NCBI GenBank assembly: GCA_951406725.2
Contig: OX597831.1
Coordinates: 52,824,001-52,888,000 of the forward strand
DNA length: 64,000 nucleotides
Origin: Octopus vulgaris
Taxonomy: Eukaryota
Direction: 5' to 3'
In this document: positions 5,601 to 60,708 of the stretch, one piece after another
Layout: each line of letters opens with the position of its first letter
Numbering within the stretch: position 1 is the first letter of the stretch
The notes under the pieces: generated by a model
Database searches by the model: none
Seen by the model: only the letters and a program-made list of their open reading frames with translations
What the model was told of the DNA's origin: nothing
Program-made: the position numbers and the translations under genes

Positions 5601-8600
5601 TCTAAAACATCTGAGATCCAGTTAACCAAGGTATTGCAGGTAAATTCAGACAGAGGGGAATTGTAAAGAAACCAGTCAAATGGAAGGTCAAGCTCTCGTT
5701 GCAATATGGTAGCCTGGGCACCTCAGTGACTCTGAATTAAAGCTCCAGGTAGGGCCTCCCATGCAGGTCAGATCAAAGGATAAAAGCCAAACTAATATGG
5801 ATCACTTCTTCCCAGAGGTAAAATGGGTTTGCATAGAGGCAACACCCCTACTTAGAAGAAAAGCAAAGTTACAGAAACATTTCAAAACTAACAAGTCTTG
5901 GGAGAGGCAGGCTTTCCTTTGGGAAAATATATGAGACAGAGTACTGTAGCAGATCTGAAAAATCAGGGATCCAACCAGAGAGTAGCAGAAAAGACAGTCC
6001 AAAGTTGAGAAAGGTAAAGAATGGTAGTCATCAATAGCCTGCCTATGGACCAAGGATCTTAAAAACAGAAATGTACCAGTGGAATCCATATATATATATA
6101 TATATAAGTTTTTTTTTAAACTTTTCTTTTAATTTTTCTAAATTTAATTATTTAATTGTTGCAGTTGAAAAAGTCTCAATGACTGAAACCAGTACTGAAA
6201 TGTTTTTTATAAAATTATTTTAGCATTTTCTATCTTGACTTTTTTTTCCATATATATATGTGTGTGTGTGTCTGTTTGTGTTTAAATACACTATACATAT
6301 ATACAATAAATACTCTGATACATGGTGATGCTTTCATCATCTCTGAATATATTTCAGCTTATTCTGATCTTTTAGTTTTAATGACTTTCTTTCCTCACAA
6401 CTGCTTATGTGAATGCTATATTAGTCACCACTACTATTTCCCATCAAAATTTTGCGGTGGGGCCTTGCAATAGGAAAGCTGCTTTTATTTTCAAATTCCA
6501 TTTTTTTTTATTCAGTAACTAGCACTTGTTATACTTCCATAGATTTTAGTTGTCATTGAGAGCAATTACATGAATATTATATTTTTCATAGTATGCCATT
6601 TCATAACACAAACTACCAAACATAACTCATTCTCATTTTCAAATGTGAAATTTTCATTTTCCTAAAACTAAATTTCATTTATGACTTACCTTTATTAGTG
6701 CTGTTATTAATGCTATTATTATTATCATTATTATAATCATCATCATCATCATCATCATCATCATCATCATCGTCATTGTCATCACCATTATCATCATTAT
6801 TGTTATCAACATCATCATCATTATCATTGTTATTATTTAATTTTGAGGTATTAACCCAATGTGAGAATTCAGTATGATTTAACTTTGAGGCATTACGCCA
6901 GCCTGTTAATTCACTATAATTTGACTTTGAATATGTAATTCTTGTTGGCTCAAACAGTTCTTCTGTTGAAGAAGCATTGTTGCATGGGTCTGAAAGGAAT
7001 AAAATAAACAGTCCATGATTATTTTTGAAAGGAAAATCTTGAAGAAAGCAACAAATAAACACAAAATAATTGTATAAACAAAATTTATAAACTAGAAACT
7101 TCTGTCTTGTTCTTGTTTGTTTTCTTCCAAAACTATTCTACAAGAACTTCTTTTCTGGTTTTTTTTTTTTTTTTTCAATGAATTGTAGCCCAACATATGC
7201 CCTGAACATCAAATGTCCATTAGAGTAGTCCTTGGTGTGTGGTGAAGAAGCTTGCTTCCCAACAATGTGATCTCAAGTTCTATCCCATTGTATGGCACCT
7301 TAAGCAAGTGTCTTCTACTATTGTCCTGGGTTGGGTCAGCCAAAGCCTCTCACACTTTCTTATTTCTTTATTGCCCACAAGGGGCTAAACATAGAGGGGA
7401 CAAACAAGGACAGACAAAGGGATTAAGTCGATTATATCAACCACGGTGCGTAACTGGTACTTAATTTATCGACCTCGAAAGGATGAAAGGCAAAGTCGAC
7501 CTTGGCGGAATTTGAACTCAGAACGTAATGGCAGACAAAATACCGCTAAGCATTTCGCCTAGTGTGCTAACATTTCTGCCAGCTCGCCTCTCACTCTTTC
7601 TAGTGACCAAATCTAGTCAAAAGATAGTGGCTGGCCTGGGATTATAAGAAAAATACACTTCCCCAAGATGCAACACATTAGATTTGAACCCAAAATCATG
7701 TAGTTGGGAAGCAAACTTCTTACCTACACAGCCACACCTGCACCTTTAGCATTCATATTACCTTACCAAATGTAATGCTTAATTATTCGCATTATTTTGA
7801 ATTACTCAAAAGGTGGTGAGCTGGCAAAATCGTTATCACGCCAGGCAAAATGCTTGGCAACGTCTTATCCATCTTTATGTTCAGATTCAAATTCCACCTT
7901 TGCCTTTCATCCTTTTGAAGTTGATAAAATTAGTACCAGATGAGTACTGGGGTTGATGTAATCAACTTGATCCCTCCCTGAAATTGCTGGCCTTATGCCA
8001 AAATATGAACCCATTATTTTGAACTACTCATACATTATATTTTTGTTTTGGAATTTCGATGATGTGATAAGCTTATTTTCAGAATTGTAGGGTAGGTATG
8101 AGAGACTGAATATGGCCAATCTGTGCGTAAAACAGATATAATATTTGGGCTGGATACAAATTTGTCACCAGCAGAGGTAGGAGCTCTCTGAACTTTGCCC
8201 AGGCTATTGTTATTCTTAAAAAAAGAGAAAATACCAACAAATGAGATTAAATGCAATTAAAACTGTTTAAAACATTTTATTGGTCAGTGGGAGGACTTAT
8301 CATTTACTTACCAAAAGAATTATTTTGTGGAAGGCACATATGGTTGAAGACAAAATCTTTCTCTACCTCAGGTGCTGAGATTAATCCAGGCAGGCACTGG
8401 CAGGAACTCTCAAAGCAATAAAGTCTGTGACTTATATCACATTGGTCAGAATAGGTGCAGTTTTCTCCTAAGAGTAACTTATTTGGAAGAACGCAGTAGT
8501 TATTCTGAAGCAATAGAGGAAATTTGCAGTCACACTTTCCACTTGGTCTACATTCGGCTATAGATGGATCACACTTCACAGTCCTATTACATGGCTGACC

Positions 8601-60708: not shown

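Follow-up and report, generated by a model that had tools for sequence, protein, structure and literature searches.

Hammerhead ribozyme folds as probable ends of Penelope-like elements in and around an EB-module gene of Octopus vulgaris

Minimal hammerhead ribozymes have been known in Penelope-like elements (PLEs) since 2014 (PMC4209133), where they are described as many heterogeneous families per metazoan genome, mostly single and deriving from truncated PLEs. In vitro, they do not cleave as monomers and cleave weakly as dimers, and the processing of a tandem precursor RNA has been proposed as their task (PMC4209133). Structurally, the PLEs themselves are recognized by copies that share one 3' end, are cut back to varying degrees at the 5' end, and carry inverted arms (PMC8557442). 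Two further kinds of element are close relatives in structure. The SM-alpha repeats of Schistosoma are tandem repeats whose hammerhead frees copies from a multimeric RNA, with no autonomous partner named in the sections that describe them (PMC6765202, PMC8490949), and the metazoan non-LTR (non-long terminal repeat) retrozymes are tandem units giving circular RNAs (PMC7229834, bioRxiv 10.64898/2026.07.22.740005). Among cephalopods, 235 Rfam hammerhead matches are reported for the giant squid (PMC6962438), and Penelope-like and short interspersed element (SINE) families are described in Octopus vulgaris in a paper whose main text uses the words "hammerhead" and "ribozyme" 0 times (PMC13282606). 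Here we analyze a 64,000-nucleotide stretch of the 2.80-Gb Octopus vulgaris genome (G000:C18:52824001-52888000, hereafter the window), in which hammerhead folds of six families, A to F, lie within and upstream of a gene for a cysteine-rich EB-module protein.

We consider it very likely, from sequence comparison, that these hammerheads lie in the 3' ends, or pseudo-long terminal repeats (pLTRs), of six high-copy families. In other copies, five of the families adjoin Penelope-type reverse transcriptase (RT) or GIY-YIG sequence, and the sixth, F, likely does too. The copies in the window are probably dead insertions truncated at the 5' end, and the ribozymes would cut only as dimers in the tandem RNA of the parent element. 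By analogy with known PLE biology, the read-through RNA of a tandem element would hold two hammerheads; the palindromic stem III strands would pair, and the dimer would cut out a unit-length RNA. The RT and the GIY-YIG nuclease would then insert copies that mostly keep the 3' end only. For the copies in the window, we infer that they are inert remnants that do nothing for the host gene.

Hammerhead families and Penelope-type coding sequence

The hammerhead folds in the window are real. All seven places at which the earlier note had reported hammerhead-like folds carry them, and a strict type I descriptor matches three (cores at 29982+, 47267+, and 59619+), against a mean of 0.04 strict folds in 100 block-wise dinucleotide shuffles of the window, 97 of which had none. 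The same note had called five cores intact, and they are, at these three positions and at 10240(-) and 46983(-), but the strict fold fails at the last two, at 10240(-) because stem II has a bulged C and at 46983(-) through a G10.1-A11.1 mismatch. Two family B copies, arranged in tandem, were added to the earlier list; the core at 10285+ has C in place of A9, and the unit with its core at 10368+ has two changes in stem III. A search of the whole window with Rfam at the gathering score returned one tRNA and no hammerhead, none of the window's copies reaching the threshold. A CTGATGA at 30247(-) was rejected as a candidate; it lies inside another repeat and has no stems under the descriptor.

The six family consensuses are mutually unrelated outside the core (best alignment E=0.01), in agreement with the earlier description of sequence-unrelated families, and stem III is short and palindromic or nearly so in all six, as had also been noticed. 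The self-duplex energies of stem III are -1.7 (A), -9.7 (B), -6.0 (C), -12.4 (D), -8.3 (E), and -11.1 (F) kcal/mol. The core consensus is canonical in families A, B, C, and D, is a U3-A8 variant in E, and has C at position 4 in F. The family E core, TTGAAAA, is present in 33 of 34 arms, and the copy at 6160-6200, previously taken for a relic, is thus in the ordinary state of its family and differs from it by one stem III change; the U3-A8 variant is reported for Schistosoma Cercyon elements (PMC4209133). The copy at 47505-47585 is a relic, as proposed, and has lost ∼53 nt that included the GUC site and the stem I 3' strand. Of 18 family F arms, 9 have C at position 4, and CpG decay products point to CCGACGA as the ancestral core. 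Among the window copies, only that of family C equals its family consensus.

These families resemble those described in PMC4209133 in being heterogeneous, mostly single, and located in truncated PLEs, with opposite-strand pairs 100 to 700 bp apart. They also share the long helix II and short helix I, the bulged bases after A9 and in helix II, a palindromic 15.2-16.2 or loop 3, and the U3-A8 core variant. Families C, D, and F have helix II arms of 52 to 57 nt. In the sections of that paper that describe such families, Octopus is not named, and there is no description of a C4 core, as in family F, or of a hammerhead in the first codons of an open reading frame (ORF), as in family A.

In alignments of thirty loci per family, the window copy included, collinearity falls abruptly at the 3' end and gradually at the 5' end in all six families. 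A 3' extension of one arm, another PLE trait, is also present. An inverted arm lies within 900 nt upstream in 16 (A), 12 (B), 2 (C), 11 (D), 5 (E), and 8 (F) of 29 copies each, the count for C being low because the query already contained the inverted piece. The 3' end is followed by (TA)n in 20/29 copies of B, 28/29 of C, 19/29 of D, 28/29 of E, and 19/25 of F, and in 3/28 of A. The (TA)n-flanked elements of 150 to 300 bp described before are correct as to the (TA)n at the ends of families B to F, but they are the ends of PLEs, left by truncation and inversion, rather than elements of unit length.

The link of hammerheads to PLEs, which the earlier note had drawn, is borne out by the copies of families A to E that join PLE coding sequence elsewhere in the genome. 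It is most complete for family C, in which two 279-nt direct repeats, 2,866 bp apart and each with a hammerhead, flank an ORF (locus L331); the ORF has one frameshift, and the hammerhead of the 3' repeat has U4 changed to C. The nearest Atlas clusters of this ORF, with scores of 0.96 to 0.97, include RVT_1 + HTH + GIY-YIG families, and it has 276 relatives at E<=1e-10. We note that positions 1099-4243 of L331 (G000:C5:78826098-78829242) form a nearly whole, young family C PLE in pLTR-ORF-pLTR order, with repeats that are 97% identical. In family D, a same-sense GIY-YIG sequence lies upstream in 4/30 loci (L096, L109, L111, and L118), RT follows the hammerhead end in the same sense in L093, and the window itself has an inverted RT piece at 58319-59211. 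The family B hammerhead in L047 is followed by an ORF start and RT, and a GIY-YIG-like frame is present ∼600 nt upstream of family E in 3/30 loci (L163, L179, and L180). A hammerhead pLTR upstream of an ORF start, or direct repeats, is thus present in families C (L331), A, B (L047), and D (L093), and this direct-repeat or partial-tandem arrangement with an ORF start was not seen for E and F in the loci sampled. Two candidate links were discarded: the GIY-YIG sequence upstream of family B in L042 belongs to another family, and the 30/30 match of the L053 bait in B is an artefact of a bait that read through the hammerhead itself. The small non-autonomous retroelements that had been proposed do not fit these coding links, with five of six families adjoining RT and/or GIY-YIG coding sequence elsewhere and only family A showing signs of a distinct short element.

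Families B, C, and D fit the Hydra clade of PLEs (PMC8557442). They share with it a C-terminal GIY-YIG (B, C, and D), the RW(K) and DKT motifs (RWK in L053 and RWE + DKT in L047 for B; RWL + DKT for C), the CxCX5C linker (D, in L111), (TA)n targets, a unit of less than 3 kb (that of family C), and the presence of a hammerhead. They differ in that the family C ORF lacks the CxCX5C linker; this linker was not seen for family B. Outside Cnidaria, only a small number of Hydra-clade families are reported (PMC8557442, Craig et al. 2021). Several points weigh against the assignment of all six families to PLEs. Pfam gives no match for the family C ORF (584 aa), GIY-YIG is weak in one of five PLE pieces in the Pfam scan, and most ORF pieces pass no Pfam cut-off. 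No ORF is present in 30 family F loci, which have only AT-rich non-coding sequence to ∼900 nt upstream, and the Hydra-clade placement is by motif and (TA)n target, not by tree.

A Pol III-type head in family A

Family A has a different organization. Among 30 loci selected by its GIY-YIG protein, one of them the bait, 29 have a head with A and B boxes, the promoter elements of RNA polymerase III (Pol III), ∼27 nt after the stop codon, and 25 continue past an (AAT)n run into the hammerhead body. The order 3' of the stop codon is A/B-box head, (AAT)n, AUG, and hammerhead, the last within the first ∼30 codons of the ORF. In most of 30 loci selected by the N terminus, the hammerhead body is followed without interruption by the ORF start. 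A reading frame that begins at an AUG ∼30 nt upstream of the core crosses the ribozyme and continues into the N terminus of the RT; of 14 loci translated, L347 and L358 keep this frame open, and in most it has decayed. In L332, RVT_1 scores above the Pfam cut-off. The GIY-YIG domain has CxC between its GIY and YIG halves, two downstream His residues, and no zinc-finger linker, and the N-terminal motif is GLNF, where Penelope/Poseidon elements would have GxKF/Y and a CCHH-type GIY-YIG. Family A tentatively fits the Penelope/Poseidon clade (PMC8557442), with which it shares RT followed by GIY-YIG with two cysteines between the halves, the lack of a zinc-finger linker and of (TA)n targeting, and partial tandem and inverted copies; it differs in having a pLTR with a Pol III A/B-box head and (AAT)n, and in that most short copies start at the head.

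The two boxes of the head are perfect by the generally known consensus and are correctly spaced, and only 3 of 200,000 shuffles were as good. Of 30 loci selected by the head, one being the window, 28 continued into the hammerhead, and within these samples the head therefore does not stand elsewhere as a free SINE. The 5' ends of short copies pile up at the head. Of 66 arms with a head anchor, 55 reach the A box, 48 start at -15 to 0 relative to it, and 7 go further. The 5' end preferred by tRNA-derived SINEs is 10 to 15 nt ahead of this box. Among the five ORF-bearing pLTRs that reach the A box in the loci selected by the N terminus, one starts there, compared with 48/55 arms (Fisher P=0.003), and the four others pass the A box, showing that RT can pass the head. 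The short copies of family A therefore most likely come from a short RNA starting ∼13 nt before the A box, judging by where the arms begin. Among three readings of the pile-up, we regard initiation by Pol III at the head as probable: Pol III would make a short RNA (∼250 nt plus the AAT run) that the PLE enzyme would copy in the manner of a SINE. SINEs are normally copied by the enzymes of long interspersed elements (LINEs). The whole short unit is the 3' untranslated region (3'UTR) of its autonomous partner, with a shared 3' end. The pile-up of 5' ends at the head suggests a SINE-like short RNA nested in this partner.

There are points on the other side. The family A clade, too, was assigned by motif, not by tree, and two of three family A pieces have no Pfam match. 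ARAGORN found 0 tRNA genes in 30 family A loci, and Rfam by E-value found neither a tRNA nor a hammerhead in 5 loci and one 301-nt stretch. The head folds poorly as a cloverleaf and has a weak match to another SINE-like head; given the missing ARAGORN and Rfam calls, we only infer its tRNA origin. The arms of one insertion are not independent, one of the 48 (L279) reads -78 by gapped alignment, and the ORF-bearing pLTR sample consists of five cases read by eye, with L357 (deleted head) left out. Depletion of T4 runs was considered as a Pol III signature and is not counted as support, being insignificant in the family A body (P=0.68) and in the whole element (0 runs where 2.0 are expected; P=0.12 when dinucleotides are shuffled and 0.05 when synonymous codons are).

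The pile-up could also have arisen from RT stalling or folding back at the hairpin and palindromes 5' of the A box, with no role for Pol III, and we give this appreciable weight while thinking it unlikely. Many family A 5' ends are head-to-head inversion joints beside short palindromes, the ends are ragged over ∼20 nt, and the head is not recognized as a tRNA, all of which such fold-back would accommodate; it accounts poorly, however, for the four ORF-bearing pLTRs that read through, for the contrast between a truncation rate of ∼0.15% per nt within the ORF and the 87% of arms that end within 16 nt, and for two perfect boxes at the correct spacing. Less likely again, and in our view doubtful, is that the short template is cut by RNase P from a long PLE RNA at the tRNA-like head rather than initiated there. 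In tRNA numbering, the mature 5' end of a tRNA-derived head would fall at -7, and 6/66 arms end at exactly this position; a cut there would not leave the 25 arms that end at -15 to -8, however, and the poor cloverleaf folding of the head also argues against it.

A close parallel is offered by the Schistosoma elements SM-alpha and Sj-alpha, short dispersed repeats that likewise have a type I hammerhead behind a Pol III promoter (PMC6765202, PMC8490949). Compared with SM-alpha, family A has a minimal hammerhead, and the same head-hammerhead block serves as pLTR in an autonomous PLE. More tentatively, and with somewhat less than even confidence, we propose that a Poseidon-like Penelope captured a tRNA-type Pol III head in its own pLTR. 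Its intact-head copies would be hammerhead SINEs for the Penelope enzyme to copy, and most of the ∼20,000 insertions would stem from such short RNAs. That head could also start an ORF-bearing RNA, with the AUG just 5' of a hammerhead lying in codons 11 to 25, in which cleavage would switch message to template; separately, family F short copies that start at GUC would be a cleavage fossil. Within the open-licence literature, with Repbase, Dfam, and supplements outside its scope, we found neither a PLE carrying a Pol III head nor a PLE-mobilized SINE described, and family A may already be present in those collections. Family A is the new part of this finding and a variant worth a specialist's look.

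Abundance, decay, and cleavage

Hammerheads of this kind are numerous in the genome. Sixty 10-kb stretches taken on a fixed 30-Mb grid across contigs C1 to C15 (599,900 bases) have 13 strict hammerheads, against 0 to 1 in ten shuffles, a density of one per 46 kb. Extrapolated from C1 to C15, this gives ∼61,000 strict folds genome-wide (95% range, 32,000 to 104,000). The window is not enriched, with 3 strict folds compared with 1.39 expected (P=0.16), and the earlier impression that they are packed here does not hold; the proposal of a diverse, high-copy set does, with six families in the window, each having at least 40 scored genomic matches. Family A has 5 insertions in the grid sample, corresponding to ∼23,000 genome-wide (range, 7,600 to 54,000), E has 2, and D and F have 0. 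Of the 13 grid hammerheads, 12 belong to six or seven families, grouped by eye, that are absent from the window (L246, L251, L283, L259, L273, L278, L296, L264, L265, L266, L289, and L298). One of these extra families has 4 strict copies in 600 kb, and a hammerhead of the L264 type follows the GIY-YIG frame in L042. We also note that two loci 9.6 kb apart, L034 and L035 (G000:C20:18154023 and 18144374), are 100% identical over 3.1 kb, through either a recent segmental duplication or an assembly duplicate. That minimal PLE hammerheads are abundant is already known for animal genomes, and this part of the finding is ordinary.

The ribozyme core is somewhat better preserved than its base composition would predict. 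In samples selected by the post-cleavage part only, and counting non-CpG changes, family A has 17 core changes compared with 25.5 in the base-matched expectation (46 arms; P=0.05), and family D has 12 compared with 22.3 (31 arms; P=0.013), about half to two thirds of expectation. The core conservation that had been put forward as a check is present in families A and D, but at a level expected if several source elements gave rise to copies that then decayed largely neutrally. Stem covariation, put forward alongside it, did not materialize: compensatory change within families is not beyond chance, a point against our overall reading. The A-U at 10.1-11.1 in the hammerhead at 47262 was considered as compensatory and rejected, being present in 4/29 family A copies against 3.8 expected. 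Between families, pair 2.1-1.1 is variously C-G, A-U, U-A, and G-C, in folds that were chosen for pairing.

Traces of cleavage were sought in the 5' ends. The main arms of family F at 39 loci start at or before -47 in 27 cases, at -46 to -1 in none, and at 0 to +43 in 12 (five of them at 0 to +6), a gap at the cleavage site with a one-sided chance of 2e-4 that was found post hoc in a sample chosen by a deleted query. The corresponding counts at the cleavage site weigh the other way in family A (1/29) and family D (0/29), and with no step in these two the family F step stays a lead. An apparent excess of family A 5' ends at the cleavage site (8 arms at 0 to +4) was set aside, as it coincided with a palindrome and was absent from the post-cleavage-selected sample (1/29).

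It is improbable that the families are independent non-autonomous retrozymes, with tandem units of 150 to 450 bp replicating via circular RNA. Most copies are short and non-coding, family F lacks an ORF in the loci sampled, and animal retrozymes are themselves reported to derive from pLTRs (bioRxiv 10.64898/2026.07.22.740005), so that short type I hammerhead repeats related to pLTRs are common to both (PMC7229834). However, the octopus copies are dispersed truncations, as monomers or head-to-head arms with ragged 5' ends; tandem 150- to 450-bp units with complete hammerheads are absent from the sampled loci, and families A to E continue into PLE coding sequence in other copies. The one tandem arrangement in the window, an 83-nt duplication in family B, has microhomology at its joint, which lies away from the cleavage site, and the core of one unit is broken. 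Finally, we regard as highly improbable the retention of these ribozymes by the host gene for regulation of its own pre-mRNA, which a single core-intact copy in the host transcript sense would favor (10245-10185, in the family B minus arm, the only such copy within the coding introns), since the E and C copies and the direct arm of B run antisense to the gene, pairing with the 93 to 96% identical inverted partner would be expected for the sense B copy in the host transcript, the density is ordinary, and most window copies carry damaging changes.

The window, its host gene, and the wider meaning

The window has 38% G+C and many microsatellites, and its main gene, on the minus strand, codes for the EB-module protein (Table 1). 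PF01683 passed in 5/5 exons tested, and the closest library protein is an Octopus sinensis "fibrillin-1-like" protein with 80 to 98% identity in 11/12 blocks and 71% in one. The coding blocks descend from the ATG at 44619 (-) to 2369. Families E (6.2 kb), B (10.2 kb), and C (30.0 kb) sit within coding introns of this gene, as the earlier placement in the introns of one gene had it, but A and F (46.9 to 47.9 kb) and D (59.6 kb) do not; given the position of the ATG, these copies are 2 to 15 kb upstream of the start codon, where they would lie in either a 5'UTR intron or intergenic DNA.

Table 1. Host gene and Penelope-like element copies in the window
Feature	Coordinates	Strand	Description
Host gene, EB-module (PF01683) cysteine-rich protein	2369..44619	-	12 coding exon blocks mapped in window
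Family E PLE 3' end, 5'-truncated	6118..6250	+	Between (TA)n tracts; hammerhead 6162-6197, U3-A8 core, GUA site, one stem III change
Family B inverted arm	10142..10261	-	Hammerhead 10185-10245, intact core, GUU site
Family B direct arm	10262..10466	+	83-nt local duplication, cores 10285 and 10368, (TA)n at end
Family C inverted piece	29873..29962	-	Matches stretch between 5' pLTR and ORF start of whole element
Family C pLTR 3' part	29965..30105	+	Hammerhead 29976-30061 equal to family consensus, GUC site, (TA)n at end
Family A inverted arm	46885..47154	-	A box 47154-47144, B box ∼47110-47102, (AAT)n; hammerhead 46988-46943, intact core, G10.1-A11.1 mismatch, GUC site
Family A direct arm	47155..47388	+	Starts in head past B box; (AAT)n; hammerhead 47262-47307, bulged A after A9, A-U at 10.1-11.1, ACGU stem III, GUC
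Family F copy	47446..47744	+	Hammerhead remnant 47505-47575, CCGACGA core, ∼53 nt lost across cleavage site, (TA)n at end
Second family F 3' piece	47786..47864	-	Faces same (TA)n tract as 47446..47744 copy
Family D inverted arm	58319..59211	-	Degraded RT C-terminal and linker coding sequence, interrupted ∼58410-58836
Family D 3'UTR/pLTR	59278..59805	+	Hammerhead 59615-59697, GUA site, one stem III change, (TA)n at end

Inverted PLE arms are present in the window at 10142-10466, 46885-47388, and 47664-47866, and read-through transcripts of such arms would form double-stranded RNA hairpins of 100 to 250 bp that are possible substrates of A-to-I editing. Several other features lie nearby. An open frame at 61068-61376 (+), divergent from the EB gene, is a short piece without a Pfam match that we take to resemble the first exon of cytosolic aspartate aminotransferase. 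A tRNA-like gene at 38987-39058 (+) scores 53 bits with the Rfam tRNA model and adjoins an (AC)n tract. A long LINE copy at 52386-55089 (-), with an endonuclease domain (PF14529) and an RT frame, is split into two frames, and two tandem copies of a 173-nt SINE-like repeat lie at 62550-62907, with further pieces at 7.4, 47.9, and 63.1 kb.

These observations add to what is known of the octopus genome an estimate of ∼60,000 strict hammerhead folds in 12 or more families, and the family C element at L331 is useful for tests of dimer cleavage. If the cleavage-site gap in family F is true, its 5' ends would be rare genomic evidence of a ribozyme cutting RNA in the cell. The purpose of PLE hammerheads is called still unclear in PMC8557442, and if our reading of family A is true, this family would offer a direct test of it; a Pol III head in a PLE terminal repeat would then be a simple route from PLEs to SINE-like or SM-alpha-like hammerhead elements.

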